Source: a virus. Taken from it: DNA of 33,972 nt. Below the pieces are notes generated by a model, which saw only the letters and a list, made by a program, of their open reading frames with translations, ran no database searches and was not told the DNA's origin. Position 1 is the stretch's first letter. Every line of letters begins with the position of its first letter. Shown one piece after another: positions 5,901-33,972 of this stretch. The stretch lies in IMG/VR virus record IMGVR_UViG_3300050144_000055, one strand, 5' to 3'. Made by a program: the position numbers and the translations under genes.

Positions 5901-5960
5901 TGTAGCACTGCTACATGCTTTGCCGCAATAGCTGCGCTACATATTTTTAGCGATGCTACA
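5901..5960. promoter_or_regulatory. Left operator cluster: three TGTAGC-N3-GCTACA-type sites
   Basis: Sites are tgtagcactgctaca (5901-5915, perfect palindrome arms), aatagctgcgctaca (5927-5941) and tttagcgatgctaca (5946-5960). They lie between the repressor gene stop and the leftward operon. The third site overlaps the repressor stop codon. Confidence 0.7.
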
Positions 5961-6228
5961 GATCGTGCGCCTGAGCCGCAAGCCGCGGGCTGATCTCTTC
6001 CAGCGGAACGCCGAACCCGCGCGCATAGGCCAGCGCTGCCGGCAGGTTGATCGGTCGGCGCCCCTTGATGTGCTGGCTGAGCATCGATGCACCACCTGGC
6101 ACCCCGTGTTCACGGGCGAACGAAGCCTGGCTGATGCCGGAGAACCTCTCCGCCAGCCGCTGCGCCTCTTCTTCTTGTGACCAATTCCGCATAGGTGTAG
6201 CGATGCTATCAATTTGGTCGTGGAGCAT
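5956..6228 (-). CDS. Lambda cI N-terminal-domain-like repressor (HTH only, no S24 peptidase domain)
   Basis: WSQEEEAQRLAERFSGISQASFAREHGVPGGASMLSQHIKGRRPINLPAALAYARGFGVPLEEISPRLA parallels the lambda cI N-terminal domain (TQEQLEDARRL...LSQESVA...FSPSIA). The start is uncertain (ATG 6228 or ATG 6192). This is the only gene ending in TAG (5958..5956), with a TAA two codons later. Confidence 0.75.
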   Translation of the reverse strand: MLHDQIDSIATPMRNWSQEEEAQRLAERFSGISQASFAREHGVPGGASMLSQHIKGRRPINLPAALAYARGFGVPLEEISPRLAAQAHDL

Positions 6229-11980: not shown

Positions 11981-12592
11981 ATGGGCTCGCATCAGAAATT
12001 CACGTTCAACCCGAATGCGCAGCGCATCGGGCCCGGCATCTACTGCCTGGAGGATCTGCGCCAGCGGTGCGTGATCGACAAGGAATCGGGCTGCTGGCGG
12101 TGGGGCCTGTCGATGAACAAAGCCGGGAACGGGGCCATCGTCCCTCGCGTGTCGATCCCGGCCGGCGCGCTGTGCGAACACCGCGTGTCGTCGATGTCCG
12201 GTGGGAAGGCGGCATGGCTGCTGTCTGGCCGGCGCCTGCTGGGCAAGCGGGTGGTGTGGCGGACCTGCGGCTGCCGCGAGTGCGTCAACCCTGCCCACCT
12301 GATGTCCGGCACGAAGGCGCAGGAGGGCGCATGGATTGCGCGGACCGGCGCCTTGAAGGGGAGTGTCGCGCGGCGAATCGCGTGCATCCGCAACGTGGCC
12401 CGCACCCAGGCCCTGCCGCCGGCGAAGGTCAGCGCCATCGCCGAGGAAATGGCCGCCGGGATGCTGCAACGCGACATCTGCGCCAGGCACGGTATCAGCC
12501 TGGCAACGGCCAGCGCGATCAGCCAAGGCAAGCATCTGCACCAGCGGCTTGCGGCTGGACATCTCGGATTTTCTCATCTGGGGGTCGCATGA
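11981..12592 (+). CDS. HNH_3-like nuclease-fold protein with C-terminal HTH
   Basis: 203 aa. CWRWGLS...KAAWLLSGRRLLGKRVVWRTCGCRECVNPAHL follows the HNH_3 homing-endonuclease layout (CWxW...HxCxNxxCvNPxHL), but R replaces the first His. The C-terminus (MLQRDICARHGISLATASAISQGK) is HTH-like. Confidence 0.55.
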   Translation: MGSHQKFTFNPNAQRIGPGIYCLEDLRQRCVIDKESGCWRWGLSMNKAGNGAIVPRVSIPAGALCEHRVSSMSGGKAAWLLSGRRLLGKRVVWRTCGCRECVNPAHLMSGTKAQEGAWIARTGALKGSVARRIACIRNVARTQALPPAKVSAIAEEMAAGMLQRDICARHGISLATASAISQGKHLHQRLAAGHLGFSHLGVA

Positions 12593-13038
12593 CCACGATC
12601 ACGTTTTCGGTGCCCGGCGTGCCGGTGGCCAAGGCCCGCCCGCGCGCCACCACGATCAACGGCGCAGCCCGGCTCTACACCCCGGGCAAGACCCGCGACT
12701 ACGAGCAGCAGGTTGCCCAGGCCGCACGCAGTGCGATGTGCAAGGCCCCGCCGCTGCCCGGTGCTGTGGCCGTGTCGCTCGACATCCGGCTGCCGGTGCC
12801 GGCGAGCTGGAGCAAGACGCGCCGCGCCGATGCGCTGGCTGGGCGCGTGTTCGCCACCAGCAAGCCCGACGCGGACAACTATGCCAAGGCGGTGCTCGAC
12901 GGCTGCAACGGCGTGGTGTTCTTGGACGACGCCCAGGTGGTGCGGCTGACGGCACAAAAGCGGTATGCCGAAGAGGCTGGGGTCGATGTGCAGGTGACGG
13001 TGCTCGCGGGCGCGTCGGTCAGCATCGTGAAAACCTAA
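12589..13038 (+). CDS. rusA: RusA-family Holliday junction resolvase
   Basis: 149 aa. VPGVPVAKARPRAT, LYTPGKTRDYEQ and KPDADNYAKAVLDGCNGVVFLDDAQVV are diagnostic RusA blocks. Confidence 0.85.
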   Translation: MTTITFSVPGVPVAKARPRATTINGAARLYTPGKTRDYEQQVAQAARSAMCKAPPLPGAVAVSLDIRLPVPASWSKTRRADALAGRVFATSKPDADNYAKAVLDGCNGVVFLDDAQVVRLTAQKRYAEEAGVDVQVTVLAGASVSIVKT

Positions 13039-13094
13039 GCAGAAATTAATTTACACTGTTCCAGTACAATGGAAATTAGATATCATCACGCCAT
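13039..13094 (+). promoter_or_regulatory. AT-rich island upstream of the tRNA (candidate middle/late promoter region)
   Basis: gcagaaattaatttacactgttccagtacaatggaaattagatatcatcacgcc stands out against the high-GC background. It contains TTTACA, TACAAT and TATCAT hexamers, but none are at canonical 17-bp spacing. Confidence 0.3.
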
Positions 13095-13186
13095 GGATGC
13101 GAGGTCGCAAGGTGTGGCAGGCGGCTCTAACCCGCACGGGGCGTCGGTAAAGCGCCCGCGGGGTTCGATTCCCCGAGCATCCGCCA
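13095..13186 (+). tRNA. Amber-suppressor tRNA, anticodon CUA (13127-13129), type II with long variable arm; Ser-like identity features
   Basis: The cloverleaf accounts for all 92 nt. Acceptor GGATGCG/AGCATCC (six pairs plus G7-A66). D stem GTCG/TGGC with loop CAAGGTG. Anticodon stem GGCGG/CCGCA with loop C-T-CTA-A-C. 22-nt variable arm (stem GGGCG/CGCCC). T arm CGGGG-TTCGATT-CCCCG. Discriminator G, encoded CCA. Confidence 0.85.
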
Positions 13187-13300
13187 AGATTGGAGGCTGC
13201 CATGGCCGACATGTAGGCAAGGTGGCGCGCATGGGTCGCGCTGGTGACGTGGTAGACGCGGCTGGCGGCGCTTTCCGCATGAGGTCCGAGGGGTTGTGAG

Positions 13301-13696
13301 ATGGCAGGCGGAAGGCCAAGCGATTACCGACCAGAGTATTGCAATCGAGTGATCGAGCTGGGCCGCCTCGGCATGAGCGTTGTTGAGATGGCCGCAGAAA
13401 TCGGCGTCAGTCGCAACACGCTCGAAACATCCTGGCCCGCCGCGCACCCAGCATTTTTGGAAGCCTTTGAACTCGCCAGAGAGTCGAGTCAGGCTTGGTG
13501 GGAGTCTCAGGGCCGCGTGAACCTCATCATGCCCAAGGACTCCGGCCAGTTTCAGGGCTCGGTCTGGTCTCGCAGCATGGCGGCACGGTTCCCCCGTGAC
13601 TGGCGCGAGAACAAGGGCGTTGAGCTGACCGGCAAGGATGGCGCCGACCTGAATCTGTCTGTGGTGTTTGTTGACCCGACGCCGAGGGCCGAATGA
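13301..13696 (+). CDS. terS: Terminase small subunit
   Basis: 131 aa. GRPSDYRPEYCNRVIELGRLGMSVVEMAAEIGVSRNTLETSW...PAFLEAFELARESSQAWWE is the common HTH small-terminase pattern. Lies directly upstream of TerL with an ATGA overlap. Confidence 0.8.
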   Translation: MAGGRPSDYRPEYCNRVIELGRLGMSVVEMAAEIGVSRNTLETSWPAAHPAFLEAFELARESSQAWWESQGRVNLIMPKDSGQFQGSVWSRSMAARFPRDWRENKGVELTGKDGADLNLSVVFVDPTPRAE

Positions 13697-14958
13697 TGGA
13701 CGCACATATCCCGACCGCCCTCGCGCCGCTGTTCAAGCCGGCGCGGTACAAGTTCATCCGGGGCGGGCGCGGGTCTGGCAAATCATGGGGTGTGGCGCGT
13801 GCGCTGCTGATCCAGGCCGCGCAGTCGCCGCAACGAATCCTCTGCACCCGCGAGGTGCAGGCCAGCATCAAGGACAGCGTGCACGCGCTGCTGAAGGACC
13901 AGATCCAGGCTCTTGGCCTCGGCGCGTTCTTCGAGGTGCTGGAAACCGAGATCCGAGGGCGCAACGGCTCGCGCTTTGCGTTCCGGGGCCTGAGTGACAT
14001 GACGGCCGATTCGGTCAAGTCGTTTGAGGGTTGCACCCGCGTGTGGATCGAAGAGGCTCAGACCATCACCGAACGCTCCTGGCGCATCCTCACGCCGACG
14101 ATCCGCACGCCTGGCTCGGAGATCTGGGCGACCTACAACCCGCAGCTAGACACCGACCCGACGCACATCCGCGCCGTGGTCAACGCGCATCCGGACACAT
14201 GGTCCGCTGCCATGAACTGGCGCGACAACCCGTGGTTTCCCTCCGAGTTGGAGGCCGAGCGCCTGCACGCCAAGGCCACGATGAGCGAAGCCGAGTACCT
14301 GCACGTCTGGGAAGGGCTGTGCATGCCCGCGGTCGAGGGCGCCATCTACGCCAACGAGATGGCCGCGGTCGAGGCGTCCGGGCGCATCACGCGCGTGCCG
14401 CCCGACCCGCTGCTCAAGATGCATGCGGTGTGGGACTTGGGGTTCGCCGACTCGATGGCGATCATCTGCGTGCAGCGGGCAGCGTCCGAGTTGCGCGTGG
14501 TCGACTACATCGAGGACAGCCGGCGCGCGCTGCCCAGCTACGTGCAGGAGCTGCAGGGCAAGGGGCACAACTGGGGCAACGACTGGCTGCCTCACGACGG
14601 GTTCGCGGTCAAGCACCAGACCGGCAGGGCCGATGCCGACGTGCTGCGGGCCTTGGGTCGCCTGCCGATGCAGACGCCCGGCACCGAGGTGGAGCAGGGC
14701 GTCCGGGCGACCCGTCTGGTGTTCCCGCGGGTCTGGTTCAACGACACGCCAGCCGTGCGCCGCCTGGTCGAGTGCCTGAAGCGCTACCGGCGCAACGTCA
14801 GCAGCCGCACAGGCGAGCCGGGAAGCCCGCGACACGACGAGTTCAGCCATGGAGCCGACGCATTCCGCTACCTGGCTCTCGTCGCCGACCAACTGACAAA
14901 CAGCCCGCGCCGTGCCCGTGCCGCAGATGCCGAGTACGCGGGCGGGTGGATGGGGTGA
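13693..14958 (+). CDS. terL: Terminase large subunit (PBSX/Terminase_3-like)
   Basis: 421 aa. Walker A context KFIRGGRGSGKSWGVARALL, followed by a nuclease half with DxD-type acidic motifs. No in-frame TAG. Confidence 0.9.
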   Translation: MMDAHIPTALAPLFKPARYKFIRGGRGSGKSWGVARALLIQAAQSPQRILCTREVQASIKDSVHALLKDQIQALGLGAFFEVLETEIRGRNGSRFAFRGLSDMTADSVKSFEGCTRVWIEEAQTITERSWRILTPTIRTPGSEIWATYNPQLDTDPTHIRAVVNAHPDTWSAAMNWRDNPWFPSELEAERLHAKATMSEAEYLHVWEGLCMPAVEGAIYANEMAAVEASGRITRVPPDPLLKMHAVWDLGFADSMAIICVQRAASELRVVDYIEDSRRALPSYVQELQGKGHNWGNDWLPHDGFAVKHQTGRADADVLRALGRLPMQTPGTEVEQGVRATRLVFPRVWFNDTPAVRRLVECLKRYRRNVSSRTGEPGSPRHDEFSHGADAFRYLALVADQLTNSPRRARAADAEYAGGWMG

Positions 14959-14960
14959 CC

Positions 14961-15344
14961 ATGGAAATCGGGTATCGCCACCACGGCGACGCGCAGGCGC
15001 GCATCCGGCTGTGTCCGGGGCTCGGCGCGAAGCTGCAGGCCAGCACGCGGGAGCTGTGCGACCTGCAGGTACGCGAGGAGCGGCAGGGGCAGGGCCACGC
15101 CTCGGCGCTGCTGCGCGAGGTCTGTGATGAGGCGGACGCGGCCGGCGTGATGCTGGTCCTGTTCGTCGAGCCGTTCGACGCCGGCTTGTCGGCTGACAGC
15201 CTCGTGGCGTGGTACGGGCGGCACGGGTTCGCCGAGATCCAGGCCGAACCCGTGAAAATGATGGCCCGCCAGATCGGGGCGACCCCTCGCATCCTCAGCG
15301 GCAAGCGTGTACCATCCGCGCAACCCTTGGAGCACAGCCAGTGA
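14961..15344 (+). CDS. Small GNAT-family N-acetyltransferase
   Basis: 127 aa. The acetyl-CoA motif A-like segment is LQVREERQGQGHASALLREV. The C-terminus (LVAWYGRHGFAEI) is typical of GNATs. The TGA overlaps the portal GTG (GTGA). Confidence 0.65.
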   Translation: MEIGYRHHGDAQARIRLCPGLGAKLQASTRELCDLQVREERQGQGHASALLREVCDEADAAGVMLVLFVEPFDAGLSADSLVAWYGRHGFAEIQAEPVKMMARQIGATPRILSGKRVPSAQPLEHSQ

Positions 15345-17494
15345 CCGACGACAAGCCAGCACCGCGCAGCGATGACGACGCCTTGCTGGCCGAGGTGCGC
15401 GAGCGGCTGCAGATGTGCATCACGGCCGACGGCGACAACCACGACGCCGGGCTCGATGACCTGCGATTCCTGTCCGGTGAGCAGTGGGATCCGAAGGCCA
15501 AGGCGATGCGCGACCGCGAGGCCCGCCCGTGCTTGACGATCAACCGTCTCCCGAGCTTCCTGCACCAGGTCACCAACGACCTGCGCCAGAACCGGCCGTA
15601 GATCAAGGTCCACCCCGTTGACGACGGTGCCGACCCCGAGACGGCCGAGGTGATGCAAGGCCTGATCCGGCACATCGAGTACAGCAGCAACGCGGACGTG
15701 GCCTATGACACCGCCGTGTCGAGTGCCGCGGCGGTGGGCTTCGGGTACTTTCGCCTCGTCACCGAGTACGACGGCGACGGCTTCGACCAGTGCATCCGGT
15801 TCCGGCGGATCCGCAACCCGTTCACCGTCCACCTGGACCCGGCCAGCGAAGAGCCGGACGGGGCGGACGCACGGTTCTGCGTCATCAGCACCAAGATGCC
15901 GCGGGACGAGTTCAAGCGCCTGTACCCGGACGCCGAGGCCAGCACCGAGACGCTCGGCTGCCGCGAGGGCATGAATCAGTGGCTGTGGGGCGACTTCGTG
16001 CGCGTGGCCGAGTATTACCGCGTCGAGCACGTCAAAGGCACGCTGGTGCAGCTCACGAACGGCGAAACCGGGTGGAGGGACAAGCTCCTGGAACTGCCTG
16101 CGGGGGTGTAGATCGCCCGCGAGCGGCCCGCCCACCGCAAAGAAGTCTGGTGGTACAAGGTCACCGGCTGCGACGTGCTGGAGCGCGCGCAGATCCCGTG
16201 TGACTGGATCCCAGTGTTCCCCGTCTGGGGCGACGAACTGGACATCGACGGGCGCGTGATCCGCTCGGGCCTGGTGCGCAACGCCAAAGACCCGGCGCGC
16301 ATGTACAACTACTGGATGACCAGCGCCACCGAAGAGGTGAGCATGCGCCCGAAAACGCCATTCATCGGCGCAGAAGGCCAGTTCGACGGGCATGAGGCCA
16401 AGTGGGCACAGGCCAACACGCGCACGTTCGCCTACCTCGAATACAACCCGGTTGCGGCCAACGGCATGGTGGCGCCGCCCCCGCAGCGGCAAGCAATGTC
16501 TGACGTGCCGGTGGGCGTGCTGCAGATGGCCCGCCACGCCAGTGACGACATCAAGGCGACAACGGGCATCTTCGACGCATCGCTCGGCTCCCAGGGCAAC
16601 GAGAGGAGCGGCCGGGCGATCCTGGCGCGGCAGAAGGAAGGCGACACCGCCAACTTCCACTTTTCGGACAACCTGGCCCGCACGCTGCGCCACGCGGGCC
16701 GCTGCCTGGTGAACATGATCCCCCGCATCTACGACGCCCAGCGCGTCGTGCGCGTCATGGGGCAGGACGAGCAGATCAAGAGCGTCACGATCAACGGCCC
16801 AGCGCCGGCCGGCGATGACGACCAGGCCGCCAAGACCGCGCTGCACGACCTGACGGTCGGGAAGTACGACATCACCGTGAGCGCGGGGCCGAGCTACTCG
16901 ACGCTCCGGCAGGAGGCCGCCGAGGCGATGATCCAGTTCGGCCAGTCGTGGCCGAAGCTGATGGACGTGGCCGGCGACAAGGTCGTGAAGGCGATGGACT
17001 GGCCGGGCGCCGACGACATCGCCGAGCGCATCGCCCGCACGATCCCGCCCGAGATCCGCGGCGACGAAGACGAGCAGCAGCATGGCGTGGTGATGACGCC
17101 GCAAGGGCCGATCCCGCCCGAGCAGGCCGCGCAGGTCATGGGCCAGATGAAGCAGGCCATCGACCAGATGCAGGCCGAACTGCAGGAGGCAAAAGCCGGC
17201 CTCGACCGCGAGCGCATCAAGGCGCAAAGCGCCGAAGAGGTCGCCCGCATCCGTGCCGACGCCCTGCGCGACGTGGAAGAGCTGCGCGGCGCTGTCGAGA
17301 TGCTCAAGGCGCAGATGCAGCCCCCGCCCGCGCTGGCCGCCGCCGCCATGACCGGCCTGCACAACGACACGCCGGGCGATCACGCCGGCAACACCGAACC
17401 ACGCCCCGCGCCCAGCCCGAGCGCGGACCAGGCGCAAGAGGGCACGCAGTACGCCGAACCGGGCGGTGATCCCGGGCTGGAATCGTTGGGGTAA
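15341..17494 (+). CDS. Portal protein, read through two in-frame TAG codons (15599-15601, 16109-16111)
   Basis: Three same-frame ORFs (15209.., 15650.., 16175..) join into one 717-codon portal. Sequence continuity holds across both TAGs (LRQNRP-TAG-IKVHPVDDGADPETAEV; LELPAGV-TAG-IARERPAHRKEVWWYKV). No start codon or RBS follows either TAG. Confidence 0.85.
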
Positions 17495-17497
17495 CCA

Positions 17498-18325
17498 ATG
17501 CTGGAAGATCAGATCGACACGACCACCGAAGCGCCGGGCATCCCGGCCGACACGACCGCGCCCGCTGATGCGTAGGTCGAAACTTCGGACGGTCAGACAC
17601 AGGAGCAGTCCGAGCAGCAACAGCGAGACGAGAAGGGGCGCTTTCGCGGCGTTCAGGCTCGGATCGATGAGCTGACCCGGGCGCGCCACGAAGCCGAGCG
17701 CGAAGCCGCGTTTTGGCGTGGCCGCGCGGGTGGACAGGACGGGCAGGCGCAACCCTCGGCCACTCCGGCCGCACCCGCCAAGCCGACGCCCGACCAGTTC
17801 CAGGACTACGGCGAGTACATCGAGGCGCTGACCGACTGGAAGACCGAGCAGAAGGTGAACCAGTCACTGAGCGCCCGGGAAGCCGAGCGCGAAGCCGCGC
17901 AGAAGCAGCAGACCGTGGCGAAGACGTGGGAGGAGCGGCAGGCTGCCGCCCGCTCGACGCTGCCGGACTACGACCAAGTGCTCGGCGGCGCTGACGTGCA
18001 AGTCGTCCGCCACGTCGCCGAGGTGCTGCTCGAAAGCGACCAAGGTCCCGCGCTGGCGTACCACCTCGCCAAGCACCCGGAGATCGTGCAGCGCCTGAAC
18101 GGGCTGCCCCCCATCGCTGCGGCGCGCGAAATCGGGCGCCTCGAAGCCGGGATTTCTGCTCAGGCCCCCGCCGCCGCTCCTGTGGCCGCAAAACTCAGCA
18201 ACGCGCCGACGCCGGCAGGCCACCTCAAGGCCACCGCGCCGGCAACCCAGCGGGACCCCTCGAAGATGAGCATGGACGAATACAAAGCCATGCGATCCAA
18301 GCAGGGCGCCCGCTGGGCCAACTGA
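17498..18325 (+). CDS. Scaffolding protein (by position), read through in-frame TAG at 17573-17575
   Basis: ATG 17498 lies just after the portal TAA. The frame is open to 18325 apart from TAG at codon 26. Otherwise 360 nt of coding-like sequence would be unassigned. Charged, helical, Q/E/A-rich composition. Confidence 0.65.
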
Positions 18326-18345: not shown

Positions 18346-19557
18346 ATGGCAAATTCGCTCGTTACATGCTCCATCGTCGCCAAGGAAGCCTTGGCGATCC
18401 TCGAAAACATGCTGTCGTTCTCCAGCGCGGTGAACCGCGACTGGGAGGACGAGTTCACGGGCTAGATGTCCCGTGGTTACGCGCCCGGCACGACGATCAA
18501 CATCAAGCGTCCGCCGCGCTACACCTACCGCGCGGGCCGGGTTGCGGCGCCCCAGGGCACCGTCGAGACGACGACCCCGCTGACCCTGTCGCAGGGCGGC
18601 GCCGACCTGAACTTCTACGGCATCGACCGCACGCTGTCGCTGACCAAGCTGGAGAAGAAGCTTCAGGCCGCGATGGCGACGGTGGCGAACGAAATCGACC
18701 GGCAGGGCCTCGACCTGGCGCGCACGTCGGTCTACAACGCCATTGGCACGCCGGGCACCCTGCCGACCACGCAGGCCCTCGCCATGGCCGCAATCACGGG
18801 CGTGAACCAGCGTCTGGACGAAATGGCCGCACCGCGCGACAAGCAGCGCGCTCTGATCATGAACCCCGCCCTGAACGGCGCGATCGTGCAGGGCTTCGCT
18901 GGCATGTTCAACGGCGCCGAAAAGCTCTCCAAGCAGTTCGGCAGCGGCGTGGTGGTCGATTCGCTGGGTCTGACCTACGCGATGGACCAGAACGTGGCCA
19001 CGCACACCAACGGCACTCAGGCCGTGGCCGGCGTCAACGTCAGCGGCGCCAACCAGACCGGATCGGCCATCACCACGGTGGCGACAACCGGCACCATCAC
19101 GCGCGGCACCGTGATCACGTTCCCGGGCGTGTTCTCGGTCAACCCGCAGAGCCGCCAGTCCACGGGCCAGCTCGCGCAGTTCGTGGTCACTGCAGACCTG
19201 GCGACCGGCGTCACCTCGATCCCGATCAGCCCGGCCATCGTGACCAGCGGCGCGTTCCAGAACGTCACCGCCAGTCCGACCAACGGGGCCCCGTTCGCCG
19301 TCTTCGGCACGGCGTCCGGCTCCTACGCCTGCAACATCGGCTTCCACACCGACGCCTTCACGTTGGCGACGGTGCCGATGTACGCGCCCGCGGGCGGGAA
19401 GGGTGTGATCGATGTCGCTACCGAGTCGTACAAGGGCCTGAACCTCAAGGTGACCGAGTTCTATGACGGCATGAACGACAACTACATCATGCGCCTGGAC
19501 GTGCTGTTCGGCTGGGCGGCCACCTACCCGGAACTCGCCACCAAGTACGCCGCCTGA
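18346..19557 (+). CDS. Major capsid (coat) protein, P22-coat-family-like, read through in-frame TAG at 18463-18465
   Basis: MANSLVTCSIVAKEALAILENMLSFSSAVNRDWEDEFTG-TAG-MSRGYAPGTTINIKRPPRY. The N-terminal 39 codons carry the conserved coat N-arm pattern (EAL..L.N.L.....VNR....F) and are in frame with the 363-aa ORF. Confidence 0.8.
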
Positions 19558-19567
19558 GGAGCCTGAT

Positions 19568-19957
19568 ATGACCGTTCAACTCACCCGCCCCTACGCCGGC
19601 TATCCGGCGGGCCAGATCGTCGAACTCGCAACTGCGGTGGAGTCCGCGCTGGTCGCGCAGGGCCTCGCCACCACGTCGGCCGCCGTGCCGACCAGCGGCG
19701 CGTACAGCACCACGGCGTTCCAGGGCGTCGCAGTGGTGCCGGCCGCCGCGTCCAGCGTCGTCATCAGCAACCCGAGCTTCGACCCCGGTCAGAAGTTCTT
19801 CGCGGTGATCGCGCAGGCCACGGCTGACGCCACGGCGCTGTATGTGGCCCGCATCGTCGTGGCGGCCGGCACGCTGACCATCTACCTCAACGCCGCGGCC
19901 ACCGCTGCGACGGTGGTGGATTGGTCGATCCTGACGCCGTTCGGCACCACGATGTGA
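19568..19957 (+). CDS. Hypothetical virion protein (129 aa)
   Basis: Follows the coat gene. A/T/S/V-rich beta-type composition. Confidence 0.55.
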   Translation: MTVQLTRPYAGYPAGQIVELATAVESALVAQGLATTSAAVPTSGAYSTTAFQGVAVVPAAASSVVISNPSFDPGQKFFAVIAQATADATALYVARIVVAAGTLTIYLNAAATAATVVDWSILTPFGTTM

Positions 19958-19996
19958 TGGGGAGGGCCGGGATCCCGGCCCCGACAGGAGAGCGCA

Positions 19997-20626
19997 ATGC
20001 CTTTTTTGCAACAGGGCCAATCGGCTCAGGTCTCCGTACCAGGGGGGCAATACCTGCGGGTCACGGCCATCCGCGGCGCTCAGGCGTCCGTGTCTGCACC
20101 GCTCGGGAGGCCGGGCGGGCCGCTGCTGACCGTGGCGGATGGGGAGGTTGTCCTCCCGATGCCGGCGGGGGCGGCCACGCTGATCAACGTCAGTGCCGCC
20201 GTCGGGGAGGTCGAGTACGTCGTCAACGGGGCGGCCACGGATCAGCGGTACAACCCGGGCGCGGTTGCTGTCTCGGGCGGGACCATCAACGCCGCCACGG
20301 TGGGCGCCACCACGCCCAGCACCGGCAATTTCACGAGCTTGAGGCACACCAGCCTCGCGTCCGCGCTCACGGACGGCTCCGGCACGCCCGGCAACGTCAC
20401 GCAGAACGTAGCGCATGGGCGCGCAGCTTTCCCCGCTGCGGCGGCCAGCGTGGTCGTCACGAACTCCCTGGTCGCCGCGAATTCCTCCGTCTTCGTGCAG
20501 CTCGGCGGCACCGATGCGACGCTCACGTGCGTCAGGGTGACGACCGCTGCAGGGTCTTTCACGGTCACTGGTGATGCCGCAGCCACCGGCATCGTTCCCT
20601 TCAGCTACCTGGTCCTGAACAACTGA
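19997..20626 (+). CDS. Hypothetical virion protein (209 aa)
   Basis: CAGGAGAG RBS; TGATG overlap with the next gene. Confidence 0.55.
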   Translation: MPFLQQGQSAQVSVPGGQYLRVTAIRGAQASVSAPLGRPGGPLLTVADGEVVLPMPAGAATLINVSAAVGEVEYVVNGAATDQRYNPGAVAVSGGTINAATVGATTPSTGNFTSLRHTSLASALTDGSGTPGNVTQNVAHGRAAFPAAAASVVVTNSLVAANSSVFVQLGGTDATLTCVRVTTAAGSFTVTGDAAATGIVPFSYLVLNN

Positions 20627-22750: not shown

Positions 22751-23091
22751 TGCCTCAGGCCCTGTACTTTGTCCCTCCGCGAGGCCCTTTTGTGGACCCA
22801 GCCACGGGCGCCCTGACGCGCACCGCTGACATGTTCCTGCGGGGGTTGTATGCTCGGGTCGGCGGGTCCACTGGCGACAGCACCGCGGACCTTTCGGCCT
22901 CTGCTTTCGACGATGCTGGGACGGAAGAGCAAGAGGCGGCGCTGTACGCGCTGGCCGACGCCCAGGGGCAGCGCCCGCCGCCGCCGGTGGGGCAAGAGGC
23001 GGACGACCTGGCCGCCGAGGTGGCGCACCTGCGCGAAGAGCTTGCCGTACTGCGGCAGCAGATCAACGACATCAAGCAAGGACAGGTATGA
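22750..23091 (+). CDS. Small coiled-coil virion-module protein (113 aa)
   Basis: TGATG and ATGA overlaps. C-terminal heptad segment (LAAEVAHLREELAVLRQQINDIKQ). Confidence 0.55.
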   Translation: MPQALYFVPPRGPFVDPATGALTRTADMFLRGLYARVGGSTGDSTADLSASAFDDAGTEEQEAALYALADAQGQRPPPPVGQEADDLAAEVAHLREELAVLRQQINDIKQGQV

Positions 23092-23426
23092 CCGTCACCG
23101 CGAAGCCGATCATCAGCGCAAAGCAGGCAGAAAGCGCGCAGACCACGCAGTACACCGTGCCTGCCGGCGTGCGTGCGATCATCGACAAGTTCACTGCGAC
23201 CAACACCAGCGGCGCAACCTCGTCGCTGTAGGTCAACCTGATCCCCGGCGGCGGGTCGCCCGGCGATGCAAACCTGATCGCCAAGACCAAGGCGCTGGCG
23301 CCGGGCGAGTGCTACACGTTCCCCGAGATCGTCGGTCAGGTGCTGGGGCCGGGTGACGCGATCAGCACGCTGGCGAGTGCGACAGCGTAGATCACCATCC
23401 GTGCCAGCGGGCGCGAGGTGACGTGA
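23088..23426 (+). CDS. Small virion-module protein (112 aa) read through two in-frame TAGs (23229-23231, 23388-23390)
   Basis: The frame is open from ATG 23088 to TGA 23426 except for the two TAGs (…GATSSL-TAG-VNLIPGGGSPGD…LASATA-TAG-ITIRASGREVT). Both ends are coupled to neighbours. No ORF of 60 aa or more is called here under the standard code. Confidence 0.65.
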
Positions 23427-23889: not shown

Positions 23890-24591
23890 ATGGCATGGGC
23901 AGCAGTTGCAGGCGCAGCGATTGGAGTGGTCGGCGGGGCGGTAGCGAGCCGGTAGGCGGCGAACGCGCAGACCGACGCGGCCAACCAGGCGAACGCCACG
24001 CAGCTCGCACAGTACGAGCAGAACCGCGCCGACGCCGAGCCCTGGCGGCAGGCGGGCATGACGGCGTTGGGCCAGCTCGGCACCGGCACGGCGGCCGGCG
24101 GCGAGTTCAACCGCAACTTCGGCATGGCCGACTTCCAGGCCGACCCGGGCTACCAGTTCCGCCAGCAGCAGGGCCAGCAGGCTCTGGAGCGCAGCGCGGC
24201 GGCGCGCGGCGGGCTGCTGAACGGCGGCACGCTCAAGGCGTTGACGCGGTACGGGCAAGACACCGCGAGCGCCGAGTACGGCAACGCCTACAACCGGTTC
24301 AACAACGACCAGTCCACCCGGTTCAACCGGTTGTCGTCGCTCGCTGGCATCGGCCAGACCGCAAGCCGCGACGTGGCGCAGATGGGCATGCAGACGGCCG
24401 GCGCGGTGGCGGGCAACCAGCTCTCCGCAGGCAACGCCCGCGCGTCGGGCTACGTCGGCATGGCGAACGCATTGAACAGCGGCATCGGGCAGGGCCAGTC
24501 GATGTACTACCTGAACCAGCTCAATCGGCCGAGCGGCGGCGCGTCCGGCCAGTCGAACGCCGACATCTGGACCCAGATCAACGGGGGCTGA
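23890..24591 (+). CDS. Putative internal/ejection protein with N-terminal TM helix, read through TAG at 23953-23955
   Basis: MAWAAVAGAAIGVVGGAVASR-TAG-AANAQTDAANQANATQLAQYEQNRADAEPWRQAG... is in frame with ORF 24058..24591. The ATG lies 3 nt after the upstream stop. Confidence 0.6.
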
Positions 24592-26021: not shown

Positions 26022-28391
26022 ATGCCTCGAAACATCACAGTCACGTTCGACGACGGCACCCAGCACACCTACGCCAACGCCCCCGACAGCGTCACGCCCG
26101 ACCAGATCACGGCCCGCGCCTGGCAAGACCACGGCAAGGTGGTCACGCATCTCGACGGCGGGCGCAAGTCGGGGCCGGACGCATAGGCGCGTGTCGGCAC
26201 GGAGAAGGGCCGCGCCAGCAGCTACGGCACGCCCCCCGAGGCTGCGCCAGCGCCTGCCGAACCCAAGCCCCGCAGCCTCGGCGACGACCTGATCCGGCAA
26301 GGCGGCCTGACCGCCCGCTACGCCATGGAGGGCGCCCCGCAGGTGCTCGACCTCATCACCGCGCCCGTCCGGATTGGCCTCAACGCCGTCAATGGCGCCA
26401 TGGGCGGTAACCCTGAGCACTTCCAGCCGCTGTCCGACCTCGGCCGGCGCGGCGCCGACAGGCTTGGCCTGCCGCAGCCCGAGAACGCCGCCGAGCGCGT
26501 TATCGGCGATGCTTCCCGTGCCGTTGCCGGCTCCGGGGGCTCGGTCGGCCTGGCGCGCGCTGTGGCCGCTCGGGCGGGCACTCCGGCGGTGAAGGCCGTC
26601 GCGCAGAAGATGGCCGCTGACCCAGCAGCGCAAGGCGTCTCCGGCGCCACTGGCGCAGCAGCGGGCAGCGCGACCCGCGAAGAGGGCGGCACGCCGATGG
26701 GCCAGTTCGTCGCCTCGCTCGTTGGCGGGCTGACCGGTGGCGCGGCGCTCAACGCCGGCCGGTCGGCGACCAACGCGGCCGGCGCCGCGGCCCGCAAGGC
26801 GTTGAACCCGCGGCAGCTCGACGCCACGCTGAAGACGACGTTGGAGCGGGCCGGCGTGAGCTGGGACGACCTCGGCGCTGCGGCCAAGATCCGGCTCCGC
26901 AAGGACGCCGAGAACGCGGTGTACAGCGGCCAGCCCATCGACGCCGCGGCGCTGAAGCGCCTGGCCGACTTCCGCGCGGTCGGCGCCACGCCGCTGCTGG
27001 GCGACATCACCCAGGATCCAGGCCTGTTGACGATGCAGCGCAACCTCGCCAAGACGCAGGCCAATGGTGCGGGCGACCTGCCGGGCCTGCAGAACGCGAA
27101 CGCGGGCCGGGTGCTCGACACGCTGCAGCGGCAGGCTGACTCTCCCCTCGACGCCTACGCCACCGGCGAGCGGATCATCAGCACCGTGCAGGGCAAGGAC
27201 GCCGCGCTGAAGGCGGGGGAAAAGGCGCTGTACGACCGCGCCCGCGGCGCCGCAGGCCGAGAGGTGCAGCTCGACCGCGGCCAGTTCGTGAACGAGGCGT
27301 TTTCCAACCTGGCGGCCACCAACAGGCAGGCGTTCCTGCCGGAGTCGGTGGGCAAGGTGCTTGACCAGATCGCCGCAGGCACCGTCAAGGTCGGGGGGCA
27401 GGAGCACCCGGTGCCGTTCGACGTGAACACCATCGACCAGCTCAAGACGATCCTGGCAAGTGCCAGCCGGGCGACGATGGACGGGAACGCCAAGGCGGCA
27501 ATCAAGGCCGTGCGCGACGCGCTCGAAAACGCCCAGATCGCCACGGCGCGCCAGCCAGCCACCCCGGGCGGCCTCGCTACCTGGGCGCAGGCGGCGGCCA
27601 TGCGGCAGGCCGACACGGCGCCCGCCGAGGCACTGGCGTGGTTCGACAAGGCCCGCGGCGCGGCGCGCGACCGGCGCACCTGGCAGGAGAGCGCGAAGTT
27701 CATCGAGGCGGCGCTCGACGGCGCGGCGCCTGACGACTTCGTGCGCAAGCACATCATCAGCGCACCGGTCGGCGAGCTGCAGAAGCTCAAATCCGAGATC
27801 TCCCGCGCAGCCGCGCCCGCCGCTTCGTCGTCGCGCGAGTTGTCCACCGCCGTCAACCCGGGCGGCCTCACGGCGCCGAACACCGGTGGCGCACAACAGG
27901 GCGAGATCATCAACGCCGTCCGGAAGCAGATGATCGACTACATCCTGAAGCGCGGCCGAGCGGACAGTGACGTGCGCAACTTCAGCAGCGCGGGCATGAA
28001 GGACGCCCTGCAGCAGCTCGGTGACCGCAAGCTGGCGATGTTCTTCAGCCCGGACGAGACCCAGCAGATCAAGAGCGCGGTCAACGTCGGGCGCTACATG
28101 CAGTCCCAGCCCATCGGCTCGGCGGTCAACAACAGCAACTCGGGCGCGATGCTGTGGGGGCGCCTTTCCAGTCTGCTGGGGCACGCCTCCGGGATTCCTG
28201 GCGTCGGGCCCCTCGCCGCGGCCCCGCTGCAGCAGTTCACGACCACCCTGCAAGCCCGCGGCCTGCGCGATTTATCCCGTGGGCTCGCCCAACCAGCCCC
28301 CCAGGTTGGCGCCGTAAGCTCCGCTGCGGTGCCTCTGTCGCTATTATTCGCGCAGCCAGCCCAGGGCCGCGGGGACCAGCAGCGCCGCTAA
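26022..28391 (+). CDS. Large internal virion / ejection protein (789 aa) read through TAG at 26184-26186
   Basis: ATG 26022 lies 4 nt after the upstream stop. TAG at codon 55 is followed by 138 nt of in-frame coding-like sequence, with no start codon or SD before ATG 26325. Confidence 0.55.
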
Positions 28392-28437: not shown

Positions 28438-30183
28438 ATGGCATCCATCCTCACTGAAGGCCGGCAGGCGTTCACCGATTAGGTCGGCGCCCCGCTGGTC
28501 GGCGGCAAGCTCTACACCTACGACGCCGGCACCAGCACGCCGCGCCCGACCTACGCCGACGCGGCCGGCACGGTGCCGAACACAAACCCGGTGGTGCTGG
28601 ACGCCCGCGGCGAAGCGGCGGTGTTCTGGTCCGGCGCGTACAAAGTGGTGCTCAAGACGGCGACCGATGCCACGGTCTGGACCGTGGACGGAGTGCAATC
28701 CACGGACGCGCAGGGCGCCGGGCAGTTTGCGGCGGATGCGCTGCGCACCGACTTGGCCAGCACTGCGGCCGGCAAGGGCGCCGCACTGGTGGGCCAAACA
28801 GACGGGGCGGCCTACCCTGCGGGGACGGTCGGCTGGTACATCAACAAGATCAAGCCGGTCGTGACCAACGGCGTGGACGACTACAGCCGGATCATGACCG
28901 AGCTGGCGAACACGGACGTGTGCTGGATCGATGGCGATCTGACCACCAGCCAGACCATCGTTGTGCCCGAATACAAGGGGATCTACGGCACGCACCGAGA
29001 CGGCACGACCCTGACCTACACCGGGGCCGGGGCTTGTGGGATCTACTGCGGTCAGGCCGGCTACGCGGTCCCATTGCGTGGATACGAGCTACGGGACTTT
29101 ACGCTCGCGGTGACGAACAAAAGCGTCGTGATCGACGGCATCGTGATGGAAAACGCCATCCATTTTCAGGTGCGCGACATCACGATCACCGGCCCGAAAA
29201 ACCCGAACTTGGTGGAGCCGCTGACCGGATCGGGCCTGCACATCAAGAACGGCTCGTTCATCGGCCGTGTGTCGCGCGTTGATTCGCGCCTTTGGGAGTA
29301 TGGGGTACATACTCAGACAATGATCACCGGGCAGGATTCATGGACCGCTGCCCTGGTGTTTGATGGCCAGGGCGAACTGATCAACAACCGCATCGGCATG
29401 ATGCTTGGGGACGATTCGGTCGCGCTCTATGATTTCAACGGGTGCACCGTTCGCGATTACACCGTCGAGGGCAACTACGAAGGCGGTATCCAAGTGGTCA
29501 GCGCGGTCTCTGCCACGCTGGACAACATCTACTGCGAGCATAACGGGTACTGGGATATCCGGCTGGGCAGCGACGGGATTGCTCCTGGCCCGATCAAAAC
29601 CCGGATCAACAACTGCAAGGCCGACTCCAACGACACGCAGTCCACGCCATACGGATCGCGCACGTATTTGTCGAAGCTGTGGATCCAGAAGGCGTCGTTT
29701 GCGAGCGCACGCGACAACGACTTCGCGGCAGGCTCGATCCCGTGCATCCGGATCGATCCCGGCAGTGACCGCGCCTACCTGGACAACAACCGGGTCAACA
29801 CGGCAAGCGCCATCAAGATTCTCGACAACGGCGTCGGCACGATCATCGACAACACTCCCGGGGTGCTGCAGTCCGTTATTTCGGTGCCGACTCTGCTCAA
29901 TAGTTGGGCCAACCTCGGCTCCGGGTATGAGCAGGCGGGGATCACGTCGCAGCGCCAGGCCAATGGGGCGACCGAGATCATGCTGAATGGCATGATCAGC
30001 GGCGGGGCCGCGGGCAGCACCATATTCACGCTACCGGCCGGCCAGCGGCCATCCGCGCGGATTGATTTTGCCGTAGGAGGAGGCGCTGCCAACAACGTCG
30101 CAGTATTTAGCACGGGGGACGTGATATGCACAGTCAAGGGGTCGTCGTCAATTTCGCTGCGCGGCGTCCGGTTCTTGGTTTGA
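28438..30183 (+). CDS. Tailspike / tail fibre read through TAG at 28480-28482
   Basis: MASILTEGRQAFTD-TAG-VGAPLVGGKLYTYDAGTSTPRPTYADAAGTVPNTNPVVLDARGEAAVFWSGAYKVVLK is the widespread conserved phage tail-fibre N-terminal motif, and the TAG falls inside it. The C-terminal two thirds have beta-helix-like repeats and lower GC. Confidence 0.8.
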
Positions 30184-31723: not shown

Positions 31724-31815
31724 TGCTCCCGCGCGCCTAGGGTCTGCAGCCCGAACCGCTGGCAAGTTCCACCAGCCGGCGCGCATCAACCCGGAACAGA
31801 CCAAGGAAACAGTTC

Positions 31816-33856: not shown

Positions 33857-33972
33857 GCCTTGTGCTCCGGTGCTGCGGCGGTGTCCACGCTCGGATCAAA
33901 CCTGCCGGCGAATTTGTCAGCCGAGGCTTCATCGCAAAACGTGAAAGTCAGTACCTCGTCATAGCAAAACAC
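33853..33972 (-). CDS. C-terminal end of the junction-spanning gene (unique part 33853..33903; the rest duplicates 1..69)
   Basis: The frame from 1..552 continues as ...DKFAG-RFDPSVDTAAAPEHKA-TGA (stop 33855..33853). Together this gives a 200-aa protein on the circular molecule. Confidence 0.7.
   Translation of the reverse strand: MFCYDEVLTFTFCDEASADKFAGRFDPSVDTAAAPEHKA
33904..33972. repeat. Terminal direct repeat, copy 2 (identical to 1..69)
   Basis: Exact 69/69 match to the first 69 bases. This indicates circular closure or an assembly overlap. Confidence 0.95.

Follow-up and report, generated by a model that had tools for sequence, protein, structure and literature searches.

Recoded Phages and Serine-Inserting Suppressors

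Alternative genetic codes have been described in crAss-like, Lak, Garnet, Topaz, and other phages, in which TAG is read as Gln (code 15) or TGA as Trp (code 4) (10.1101/2021.08.26.457843; PMC9523058). The assignments on record for low-G+C gut phages are TAG = Gln and TGA = Trp (occasionally Gly), and the published route toward it is an AT-driven loss of TAG and TGA stops, starting from low G+C. Amber suppressors that insert serine are known from another context. According to the passages of Mukai et al. (2017; PMC5389517) considered here, E. coli reads amber codons as Ser when given Sec-like tRNAs that combine a long variable arm with G73; allo-tRNAs are defined there by an 8/4 or 9/3 acceptor/T split along with longer anticodon stems, and some of them are natural nonsense suppressors. 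The same passages do not describe an allo-tRNA linked to in-frame stop codons of phage genes.

In the window analyzed here (the whole stretch of 33,972 nt in IMG/VR record IMGVR_UViG_3300050144_000055), we consider it likely that the locus at 13095 is a phage-encoded amber-suppressor tRNA, charged with serine, that makes UAG a sense codon for the phage late genes. This phage resembles known recoded phages in encoding a tRNA(CUA), in limiting its in-frame TAGs to late structural genes while its replication genes keep the standard code, in leaving TAG nearly unused as a terminator, and in having close relatives in standard code, the last of which suggests a recent and rapid change. It differs from them in several respects. 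Known recoded phages read TAG as Gln and are low-G+C gut phages, whereas Ser is the inferred residue here and the 34-kb genome, with ~68% G+C, belongs to environmental metagenomes. In addition, only nine codons are recoded in the whole genome, the lysis genes are not recoded, and the tRNA is a long-arm, Sec-like one. We found no description of TAG = Ser in any phage in the literature searched, although a report may still exist, and, as far as we are aware, TAG does not stand for Ser in any NCBI translation table.

Genome Context of the tRNA Gene

An earlier note, made from the letters of this DNA alone, had placed a phage-encoded tRNA at the boundary between early and late genes. Both points hold: the window holds the entire 33.9-kb genome of a P22-like phage, with terminal redundancy, and the tRNA sits between the genes for RusA and the small terminase (Table 1). 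Relatives of this phage were found mostly in Burkholderiales genomes.

Table 1. Coordinates of the tRNA, its neighbors, and the TAG-containing late genes in the window.
Feature	Coordinates	Strand	In-frame TAG (residue)	Evidence or remark
RusA	12589-13038			Upstream neighbor of tRNA
AT-rich spacer, RusA stop to tRNA	13039-13094	+		~34% G+C; may hold promoter and 5' leader
tRNA(CUA)	13095-13186	+		ARAGORN, Rfam E-value mode, MFE fold
Candidate leader ORF, 26 codons	13202-13282	+	13214, 13253	GGAGG upstream; ends with TGA
Small terminase	13301-13696	+		PHROG 309 / Pfam Terminase_3, assigned to the 13301-14958 pair
Large terminase	13693-14958	+		PHROG 309 / Pfam Terminase_3, assigned to the 13301-14958 pair
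Portal	15341-17494	+	15599-15601 (87), 16109-16111 (257)	Pfam P22_portal
Scaffold-position gene	17498-18325	+	17573-17575 (26)	Named from position; no Pfam match
P22-type coat	18346-19557	+	18463-18465 (40)	Pfam P22_CoatProtein, residues 1-398
112-aa late gene	23088-23426	+	23229-23231 (48), 23388-23390 (101)	
Ejection protein	23890-24591	+	23953-23955 (22)	PHROG 598
789-aa late gene	26022-28391	+	26184-26186 (55)	No Pfam match
Tail fibre/spike (beta-helix)	28438-30183	+	28480-28482 (15)	Pfam Beta_helix

The AT-rich spacer upstream of the tRNA contains a TACAAT hexamer at 13065-13070. A consensus scan around the tRNA found neither a sigma-70 promoter nor a terminator, and the AT-rich character of the spacer is not kept in the related lineage L001, so that a promoter role is no more than putative.

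Structure of the tRNA

ARAGORN called the 92-nt tRNA, plus strand, at exactly the coordinates that had been proposed for it, with anticodon CTA at position 33, and its drawing and the MFE fold agree with the proposed full cloverleaf, encoded CCA, and discriminator G73. The acceptor stem in the ARAGORN drawing consists of G1-C72, G2-C71, A3-U70, U4-A69, G5-C68, and C6-G67, followed by a G7·A66 mismatch; the D-stem is drawn as G-C, U·G, C-G, and G·U; the anticodon stem has four Watson-Crick pairs and a top G·A (G27·A43), closing the loop C-U-CUA-A-C; and the T-arm is CGGGG/TTCGATT/CCCCG, with G-CCA at the 3' end. The drawing thus also confirms the departures already noted, namely the two mismatches and U11·G24 in place of the C11-G24 of E. 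coli. The layout is that of a canonical elongator tRNA, with all arms, U33, a purine at 37, and the TTCGATT T-loop. The variable arm has the 22 nt reported before, but its stem, given there as 5 bp, has six pairs if the terminal U·G is included, around a 7-nt loop.

The core is less conventional. In the MFE structure the D-arm is a closed 6-bp helix (GUCGCA/UGUGGC) with a 3-nt loop, AGG, and this version is better than the 4-bp one by 4.6 kcal/mol of folding energy. Positions 8 and 14 are A and C, as opposed to the canonical U8 and A14. The tRNA reaches none of the Rfam gathering thresholds (29 bits for RF00005 tRNA, 47 bits for RF01852 tRNA-Sec), nor does any other part of the window, whereas the E. 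coli controls serU, leuZ, and tyrT score 53-58 bits on the general Rfam tRNA model; by this measure the tRNA is atypical. In E-value mode it gives a full-length match within the tRNA clan, with tRNA-Sec as the best model (37.2 bits, E = 7e-6).

ARAGORN labeled the gene "tRNA-Pyl," a label that follows from the CUA anticodon alone; we rejected it, as the variable arm of 22 nt stands against the 3-nt loop of tRNA-Pyl. Typical tRNA-Pyl also has a 6-bp anticodon stem and a tiny D-loop and goes with pylS/pylBCD; no pyl genes were present among the genes scanned in the 34-kb genome. ARAGORN also called a doubtful tRNA-Gly, which lies inside a gene of the window.

Comparison With tRNA-Ser, tRNA-Sec, and Allo-tRNAs

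Among the determinants recognized by SerRS, the tRNA has the main one, a variable stem of at least 5 bp (6 with the U·G), as well as G73, G2-C71, and A3-U70. The phage tRNA shares with E. coli supD (serU with CGA changed to CUA) the anticodon, the long variable arm, G73, and G2-C71, while G1-C72 and an A-U pair at 3-70 are likewise common to serU and the phage tRNA. By analogy, anticodon-independent serylation would be expected for both, and the TCG to TAG codon change seen here (see below) mirrors the CGA to CUA change of the supD anticodon. However, in serU positions 8 and 14 are U and A, the D-stem is short and carries a large D-loop, all stems are free of mismatches, and the score on the Rfam tRNA model is 57 bits, whereas the phage tRNA has A8 and C14, the closed D helix, U11·G24, and two mismatches, both G·A. 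A D-arm of the tRNA-Ser type, with C11-G24 and a 3-4-bp stem below a large loop, was therefore not found. The supD-like architecture suggested in the earlier note does not extend to the core, and Rfam ranks tRNA-Sec first for the tRNA; the predicted D-arm resembles those of tRNA-Sec and allo-tRNAs, unlike that of canonical tRNA-Ser.

Features in common with tRNA-Sec (selC, RF01852) are a D-stem of 6 bp whose very short loop contains GG, the long variable arm, and G73. SerRS is the charging enzyme of tRNA-Sec, and the same is proposed for the phage tRNA. On the other hand, tRNA-Sec has an 8/5 (13-bp) acceptor/T domain, a 6-bp anticodon stem, and anticodon UCA, compared with 7/5, four Watson-Crick pairs plus G·A, and CUA in the phage tRNA, and selC scores 83.8 bits against 37.2. 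The likeness raises the question of whether serine on this tRNA might be converted to selenocysteine by a host SelA and delivered by EF-Tu, so that UAG would encode Sec. Engineered tRNAs of Sec-like design (allo-tRNA and tRNA-UTu work) insert Sec at UAG, and by analogy this tRNA, with its selC-like D-stem and loop and its top Rfam match to tRNA-Sec, might do so as well. Yet the acceptor/T domain and anticodon stem are not those of tRNA-Sec and the score is less than that of selC, no Sec machinery is encoded in the genome, the TAGs fall in structural proteins at positions that resemble surfaces or linkers, and Cys, the usual homologue of Sec, occurs in none of the nine homologue columns described below (-43.1 bits). 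We regard a Sec reading as extremely unlikely.

Allo-tRNAs, together with the phage (8/4) tRNA-Ser, offer a further parallel in the passages of PMC5389517 considered here: like the present tRNA, they were sub-threshold matches to the tRNA-Sec model and have a D stem-loop resembling that of tRNA-Sec as well as a 12-bp acceptor/T domain compatible with EF-Tu. The long variable arm is shared too, and with G73 (allo-tRNAs have G73 or U73) it predicts Ser identity. The anticodon stem differs from the longer ones of allo-tRNAs in having four Watson-Crick pairs plus G·A, and the acceptor/T split may differ from their 8/4 or 9/3. The best fold here is 7/5, at -41.2 kcal/mol; a 9/3 fold (with tandem G7·A and A8·G followed by G9-C) can also form and is weaker, at -36.0 kcal/mol.

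Conservation and Distribution of the tRNA

In L001/L002 the tRNA is conserved at 91 of 92 nt, despite ~13% genome divergence between the lineages compared; one change in 92 nt has a probability of about 4e-5 under neutral drift. The sequence directly upstream and downstream is far more diverged than the tRNA itself. The sole substitution turns a G-C pair of the variable stem into G·U, with pairing kept. It is the only substitution available for an analysis of covariation.

Among the portal and TerL relatives compared, tRNA(CUA) is confined to the clade with in-frame TAGs: it was found in 0 of 78 portal relatives and 0 of 78 TerL relatives outside this clade, and the portal and TerL scans yielded no further variants beyond two IMG/VR contigs. 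A search for a cellular or prophage ancestor, using the anticodon arm with the anticodon left free, had no matches in 185,579 species genomes, and in JGI metagenomes the same query gave only two chance matches, with no tRNA and no similarity. A BLAST search of 50,697 phage records with the tRNA returned short T-arm matches only. In the collections searched, no common descent of the phage tRNA and cellular tRNAs could be detected from sequence.

In-Frame TAG Codons in Late Genes

There are exactly nine in-frame TAGs, spread over seven late genes (Table 1). The early and lysozyme genes lack UAG, as do, in the window, both terminase genes, the first of the late genes. Late genes contain 317 ordinary Ser codons next to the nine UAGs. 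In the portal gene, the P22_portal match (E = 1e-196, residues 21-621) is one stretch that spans both TAGs, although standard gene calling splits this gene into pieces of 86, 152, and 439 aa in all contigs. The frame of the scaffold-position gene is also supported past its TAG, across which third-position periodicity runs on and homologues align, and periodicity confirms the frame of the 112-aa gene, whose TAG at 23229 is found in all six lineages. The 789-aa ORF starts 5 nt past the preceding stop codon; its TAG occurs in L228 as well, and that of the tail fibre is retained in L092 and L228. L092 was reached by a scan with the 789-aa protein, exact-match extension of L002 having given only the same locus.

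These observations support the view that real amber suppression is required, with nine in-frame TAGs lying in conserved late genes and both the P22_portal match and the third-position substitution periodicity crossing TAGs. Two further features fit this reading. TAG serves as terminator in only 1 of 40 checked stop codons, and all nine in-frame TAGs are directly followed by a purine (P = 0.017), the context that favors suppressor tRNAs over RF1. Alternatively, the TAGs might be true stops, or they might be nonsense mutations of an element that is defective or was misassembled, with the tRNA-like sequence inactive or otherwise employed. The failure of the tRNA to reach any Rfam gathering threshold, its two stem mismatches and unusual core, and the doubtful tRNA-Gly call inside a gene are in line with that idea. 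By contrast, the same interrupted genes are present in at least 23 contigs from several samples and in about six lineages that are 82-90% identical; four TAGs are kept in every lineage with covering contigs (three to six lineages), and the codons flanking TAGs evolve under purifying selection. Moreover, the distribution of the tRNA matches that of the TAGs exactly, its sequence is strongly constrained, and the genome is complete. We therefore consider true stops highly improbable.

Amino Acid Inserted at TAG

Serine had been put forward as the probable meaning of TAG, and columns dominated by Gln, Tyr, or Leu had been named as evidence that would speak against it. In our tabulation of homologues no such dominance appeared, and Ser is the best residue overall, which supports the serine assignment. 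Ser leads the sum of the nine columns with +16.3 bits, Ala follows with +8.1, and all other residues are negative (e.g., Leu and Tyr -39.7, in addition to Cys as given above); likewise, Ser alone keeps its mean BLOSUM62 score above zero in every one of these columns. The clearest column is that of portal residue 87, with S 93, G 19, A 5, and R 1 (n = 118; Ser 79%). Residue 48 of the 112-aa protein has S 61 and T 50 (n = 136), its residue 101 has A 64 and S 30, and the tail fibre column at residue 15 is mixed (S 10, A 7, D 6, N 6, Q 4).

Codon comparisons between lineages point the same way at several sites. TAG 23388 aligns with TCG (Ser) in all five other lineages, and TAG 23953 with TCC or TCG (Ser) in all five; these two TAGs, specific to the window, are single-step derivatives of TCG Ser codons that all sister lineages have retained. 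At three positions (coat residue 40, 112-aa protein residue 101, and ejection residue 22) Ser is what the closest relatives with a sense codon carry. Some columns are not dominated by Ser, among them coat residue 40 (mostly Asn), portal residue 257 (mostly Thr), and, in the deep alignment, ejection residue 22 (mostly Lys). At coat residue 40, Ser (AGC) is found in L003, the closest non-recoded relative (83% identity), and Asn in more distant ones; at ejection residue 22, the four closest protein clusters (88-91% identity) read "SRSAA."

Three exchanges between lineages involve residues other than Ser: TAG/GCC twice (at 16109 and, in L092, at 26184) and TAG/CAG once (at 17573, in the L084/L085 lineage). 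The two GCC codons bear on the possibility that the inserted residue is alanine. Ala ranks second over the nine columns, and in a likelihood computed from the close-lineage exchanges alone it stands slightly above Ser, a method that cannot separate the two. However, a Ser/Ala swap is the commonest replacement of true Ser codons here (20 of 62 changes), and Ala makes up only 4% at portal residue 87. A73 is required for Leu and Tyr identity and G3·U70 for Ala identity; the phage tRNA has neither, carrying G73 and A3-U70 instead of the AlaRS-defining pair. We judge alanine to be very unlikely.

The CAG codon in the scaffold-position gene raises the further possibility of a functional amber suppressor charged mainly with glutamine, or with a Gln/Lys mixture, as in code 15. 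TAG = Gln is the reported reading for recoded phages, and the tRNA has U35, in its CUA anticodon, with G73, G2-C71, and G10, the classical attractors of GlnRS mischarging, so that some insertion of Gln is possible. Against glutamine as the main residue, Gln totals -23 bits, opposed to +16.3 for Ser, and code 15 is thus not what the columns indicate. Six of the nine columns, including the strongly conserved portal residue 87 (0 of 118), contain no Gln or no more than 2% of it, and two variable ones contain 5 and 11%; the ninth column consists of a single homologue, with Ala. Furthermore, G1-C72 and A3-U70 are not the Gln elements U1-A72 and G3-C70, and the acceptor stem of the Gln-like suppressors that phages in IMG/VR carry (UGGGG...CCCCA) is plainly unlike the present one. 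A glutamine reading is, in our opinion, quite unlikely. Overall, serine is the best-supported reading of TAG and the probable identity of the tRNA. The phage most likely reads TAG through its own tRNA as serine, and would need this tRNA for its portal, coat, and tail proteins.

Proposed Mechanism and Evolution

For the serine-charged suppressor, we propose the following scheme, of which SerRS charging, EF-Tu delivery, and the timing of tRNA expression are steps that we infer. The tRNA gene heads the packaging and structural module and brings its own CCA. The host seryl-tRNA synthetase, which would ignore the anticodon and recognize the long variable arm, G73, and the first acceptor pairs, could charge the tRNA with serine, and the 7/5 (12-bp) acceptor/T domain would allow EF-Tu to deliver it to the ribosome. 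There, the CUA anticodon would compete with release factor 1 at UAG, and full-length portal, scaffold, coat, 112-aa, ejection, 789-aa, and tail fibre products would be made only when the tRNA is present. With the suppressor in place, TCG to TAG changes become effectively synonymous, and TAG codons may since have been gained and lost among sister lineages. The nine UAGs against 317 Ser codons may represent an early, sparse stage of code change.

The candidate leader ORF between the tRNA and the small terminase gene (terS) might add a regulatory layer. Its TGA ends 18 nt upstream of the terS ATG, and its Shine-Dalgarno sequence, ATG, both TAGs, and frame are kept in L001/L002, where the changes between the two TAGs are synonymous; two lineages cover the region. 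When the spacer between tRNA and terS was folded for two lineages, it showed no more structure than shuffled sequence. One could imagine a natural UAG to serine reassignment at its start that is wired as a switch, in which the leader ORF senses UAG suppression and couples translation of terS and the packaging genes to the charged tRNA; packaging genes with no UAG of their own would then depend on the suppressor supply via the leader UAGs. The logic would be similar to that of an attenuation leader peptide, except that the leader would read a stop codon. We consider this scenario unlikely.

If TAG is indeed read as Ser, phage recoding would be broader in host range, genome composition, and amino acid than described. 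Recoding as sparse as nine codons is unlikely to be caught by methods based on a gain in coding density, and standard annotation breaks the portal, coat, and tail genes into pieces without any sign that it has done so. The sister lineages, which record TCG to TAG gains singly, may provide a natural model for the start of a code change. The tRNA might also be of use as a tool, as a compact and naturally EF-Tu-compatible scaffold that would combine a Sec-like core with Ser identity, a type sought for genetic-code expansion and selenoprotein engineering.

Other Long-Arm tRNA(CUA) Genes

A pattern scan of IMG/VR for long-arm tRNA(CUA) genes found many, most of them with Gln-like acceptor stems. 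One of these tRNA(CUA) genes, in L214, has a canonical Ser-like D-arm, yet the TerL TAG there aligns with Gln.

In-frame TAG codons in the late genes

With TAG treated as a sense codon, and frames checked both by third-codon-position G+C and by the periodicity of third-position substitutions against a relative 87% identical, we found exactly nine in-frame TAGs inside late genes (see table) and none in the early genes, the terminase genes or the lysozyme gene of the window. One continuous Pfam P22_portal alignment (E = 1e-196) crosses both portal TAGs, and the coat TAG is spanned by P22_CoatProtein. At 100% identity, the same phage is represented by no fewer than 23 contigs, drawn from several samples of JGI and SRA; standard gene calling splits the portal gene of every one of them into 86, 152 and 439 aa. 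Sequencing errors are therefore excluded as the source of the TAGs.

The base 3' of all nine TAGs is a purine (A in four, G in five; P = 0.017), a context that favours a suppressor tRNA over RF1. Seven are followed by ATC, GTC or ATG (post-hoc P ~1e-5), codons for Ile, Val and Met that together account for ~12% of all codons. This bias in 3' context may represent a requirement for efficient suppression. As a stop, TAG accounts for only 1 of 40 stop codons checked, the others being TGA or TAA. The single TAG-ending gene, in the divergent early control region, encodes an HTH_3 repressor-like protein, which would gain a C-terminal extension if the suppressor is active.

Features of the window and of other phage contigs (L numbers)
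Position (strand)	Feature	Residue	Homologue column	Related lineages or remark
1-69; 33904-33972	69-nt exact direct repeat
5956-6192 (-)	HTH_3 repressor-like gene, 78 aa			ends in TAG
12589-13038	RusA			directly before tRNA in gene order
13095-13186 (+)	tRNA(CUA), 92 nt
13202-13282 (+)	mini-ORF			ends 18 nt before terS start
14961-15344 (+)	small GNAT acetyltransferase gene			overlaps portal start
15599	TAG, portal	87	S 93, G 19, A 5, R 1	TAG in all lineages covering it
16109	TAG, portal	257	T 76, S 15, A 6, others	GCC
17573	TAG, scaffold	26	A 6, E 5, S 4, others	CAG in one lineage
18463	TAG, coat	40	N 40, A 6, S 3, others; closest relative (83% identity) S	TAG in all lineages covering it
19500-20550	near-identical region
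20132-20203 (+)	tRNA-Gly(GCC) call, 72 nt			inside ORF 19997-20626
23229	TAG, 112-aa protein	48	S 61, T 50, N 8, others	TAG in all lineages covering it
23388	TAG, 112-aa protein	101	A 64, S 30, G 12, T 11, others	TCG in 5/5
23953	TAG, ejection protein	22	K 61, S 24, R 12, D 11; four closest clusters (88-91% identity) all S	TCG or TCC in 5/5
26184	TAG, 789-aa protein	55	single homologue: Ala	TAG in L228, GCC in L092
28480	TAG, tail fibre	15	S 10, A 7, D 6, N 6, Q 4	TAG in all lineages covering it
31728-31748	window copy of CGCGCCTAGGGTCTGCAG			just after lysozyme gene
L001 655-680	L001 copy of CGCGCCTAGGGTCTGCAG			~70 nt upstream of tRNA
L214 2191-2284 (-)	tRNA(CUA), 94 nt			IMG/VR contig, 57% G+C

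A tRNA(CUA) with a Sec-like core

ARAGORN, run on the window, called a tRNA with anticodon CTA at exactly the coordinates proposed, from sequence alone, in the earlier note; the name it assigned, ‘Pyl’, derives from the anticodon alone and was set aside. The ARAGORN drawing and the minimum-free-energy fold reproduce the structural features listed in that note: an acceptor stem of G1-C72, G2-C71, A3-U70, U4-A69, G5-C68 and C6-G67 followed by G7·A66, an anticodon loop C-U-CUA-A-C with a G·A topping its stem, a 22-nt variable region with a 7-nt loop and a 6-bp stem (including a terminal U·G; the note gave 5 bp), a T-arm CGGGG/TTCGATT/CCCCG, a discriminator G and a CCA encoded in the gene. Rfam gave no match at curated thresholds, and the best family in E-value mode was tRNA-Sec (37.2 bits, E = 7e-6; gathering score 47). 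E. coli controls scored 53–58 bits on the general tRNA model (serU, leuZ, tyrT/V) and 83.8 bits on the tRNA-Sec model (selC). Given this sub-threshold match and the higher-scoring controls, the locus is a real but atypical tRNA. A second ARAGORN call, tRNA-Gly(GCC), is probably a false positive: its 3-bp D-stem includes a wobble pair, its T-loop is non-canonical, and Rfam gave no match for it.

The architecture had been described as supD-like, which holds for the long arm, G73, G2-C71 and A3-U70 but not for the core. In E. coli serU, the supD parent, positions 8 and 14 are U and A, and a short D-stem carries a large loop. In the phage tRNA these positions are A and C, and the D-arm closes into six pairs (GUCGCA/UGUGGC, loop AGG), a fold 4.6 kcal/mol better than one with a 4-bp D-stem and similar to the D-arm of selC. 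In Mukai et al. (PMC5389517), allo-tRNAs were likewise found as sub-threshold matches of the tRNA-Sec model; they have D-arms of the Sec type, a G or U at position 73 and long variable arms, and are argued to have Ser identity, with Ser insertion at amber codons shown in E. coli. An 8/4 or 9/3 acceptor/T split defines them, whereas the best fold of the phage tRNA is 7/5 (-41.2 kcal/mol), a 9/3 alternative with tandem G·A pairs being possible but weaker (-36.0 kcal/mol). We therefore file it as a tRNA that probably works like an allo-type or Sec-like Ser tRNA, and not as a member of the allo-tRNA family.

Serine as the likely reading of TAG

Summed over the nine homologue columns, log-likelihoods were positive for Ser (+16.3 bits) and Ala (+8.1) and negative for all other residues (Gln -23; Leu, Tyr and Trp -39.7 each; Cys -43.1), and only for Ser was the mean BLOSUM62 score above zero in every column. 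Two TCG-to-TAG steps (23388 and 23953) are what would be expected if TAG is synonymous with Ser, and this codon change mirrors a CGA-to-CUA change of an anticodon. The column comparison suggested in the earlier note thus ranks Ser first, with Gln, Leu and Tyr negative, and together with the two exchanges it supports the proposal that TAG is serine rather than glutamine. Partial mischarging of the tRNA with Gln is possible, as U35, G73, G2-C71 and G10 are all present. By contrast, a reading of UAG as Sec is very unlikely, given that Cys is absent from all nine columns and that the tRNA has no 8/5 domain, no UCA anticodon and no anticodon stem of 6 bp.

In these genomes, genuine Ser codons are exchanged most often with Ala codons, and the two residues are inseparable by close-lineage exchanges alone. 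In the E. coli identity sets, G3·U70 marks Ala and A73 marks Leu and Tyr, and SerRS ignores the anticodon. Ala is disfavoured here because the tRNA has A3-U70 instead of G3·U70, together with G73, and Leu and Tyr because it has G73 instead of A73. Its long arm, G73, G2-C71 and A3-U70 would fit SerRS recognition, and these features appear to settle the choice between Ser and Ala in favour of Ser.

Genome organization and related lineages

The terminal repeat indicates a circular or terminally redundant, and therefore complete, genome of 33,903 bp (~33.9 kb), with ~68% G+C and a P22-like gene order: a leftward recombination arm (Rha, H-NS-like protein, YqaJ, RecT), a control region with an HTH repressor/Cro-like pair, a replication module (O-like protein, DnaB), HNH endonuclease, RusA, the tRNA, TerS, TerL, a GNAT acetyltransferase, a head module (portal, scaffold, P22-type coat), head-completion and ejection proteins, a beta-helix tail fibre and lysozyme. 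The tRNA thus sits exactly at the early/late junction, as had been proposed, and homology to the sister lineage starts only ~14 nt upstream of it, so that the tRNA travels with the late module. The two locations of CGCGCCTAGGGTCTGCAG hint that the L001 and window lineages differ in the junction between lysis module and late operon. Lineages that elsewhere share 87% identity are almost 100% identical over 19500-20550, pointing to recent recombination or to an unusual constraint.

Contigs were recovered from about six lineages at 82–90% nucleotide identity (L001/L002/L092, L084/L085, L228-L230, L231/L232 and L233 besides the window), and one other lineage (L001/L002) covers the tRNA region. In that lineage 91 of the 92 tRNA positions are unchanged, and the one difference, C-to-U, converts a variable-stem G-C to G·U; at most one change under 13% neutral divergence has P ~4e-5. 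No tRNA(CUA) was found in more distant relatives, 78 for the portal (at most 67% identity) and 78 for TerL (at most 73% identity), all of which have sense codons at the TAG columns. Because genome-embedded relatives are mostly Burkholderiales (Alcaligenaceae, Castellaniella, Comamonas, Noviherbaspirillum, Sulfuritalea), the host is suggested to be a betaproteobacterium using the standard code. L001, 99.9% identical to L002, has a TAG in its large terminase gene at the equivalent of window position 14044, where all other lineages have TGG (Trp); this is either a sequencing error or a nonsense polymorphism, in which case suppression would put Ser in place of Trp.

Comparison with known phage recoding

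In published phage recoding, TAG is read as Gln or TGA as Trp (occasionally Gly), in low-G+C gut phages and often densely, with enrichment in lysis genes (Borges et al., 10.1101/2021.08.26.457843; Peters et al., PMC9523058). Isotype predictions for 180 phage suppressor tRNAs were Gln, Trp, Ile and Tyr, with no Ser. The window shares with these systems a suppressor tRNA, restriction to late genes, rare TAG stops and close relatives using the standard code, but is set apart by the inferred amino acid and by its G+C content, phage type, tRNA architecture and sparse recoding. We found no report of TAG as Ser in phages in the literature searched.

A pattern scan of IMG/VR loci (L109-L227) yielded at least 36 distinct phage tRNA(CUA) genes of 84–94 nt with long variable arms (for example L122, L146 and L184), many on contigs of 80–400 kb. 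In most of them the acceptor stem is Gln-like (U1-A72, GGGG, G73) and the extra arm is conserved and includes CUGA(A/G)G; we found no mention of a long-arm, Gln-like class in the phage recoding literature examined. The L214 tRNA(CUA), with a long arm, G73 and a canonical tRNA-Ser-like D-arm, adjoins genes with in-frame TAGs, including a Terminase_3-type TerL whose TAG aligns with Gln in the window's TerL.

Possible roles of the suppressor

Most probably, the tRNA would be made from the head of the late module, serylated by host SerRS and brought by EF-Tu to the ribosome, where it would compete with RF1 at the nine late-gene UAGs, making virion assembly dependent on it. Timing, stoichiometry and shielding of the structural genes from expression without the tRNA are candidate roles for this arrangement, and a neutral ratchet is an alternative to regulation. 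The window lineage has gained three TAGs absent from sister lineages, a pattern that would fit ongoing, nearly neutral accumulation.

The mini-ORF between the tRNA and terS consists of GGAGG, 5 nt, ATG GCC GAC ATG TAG, 12 codons, TAG, 8 codons and TGA. Folding of this region gave no structure signal. The Shine-Dalgarno sequence, ATG, both TAGs and the frame are kept in L001/L002, and three of the five codon differences between the two TAGs are synonymous; the mini-ORF could be a suppression-sensing leader, or a product of chance.
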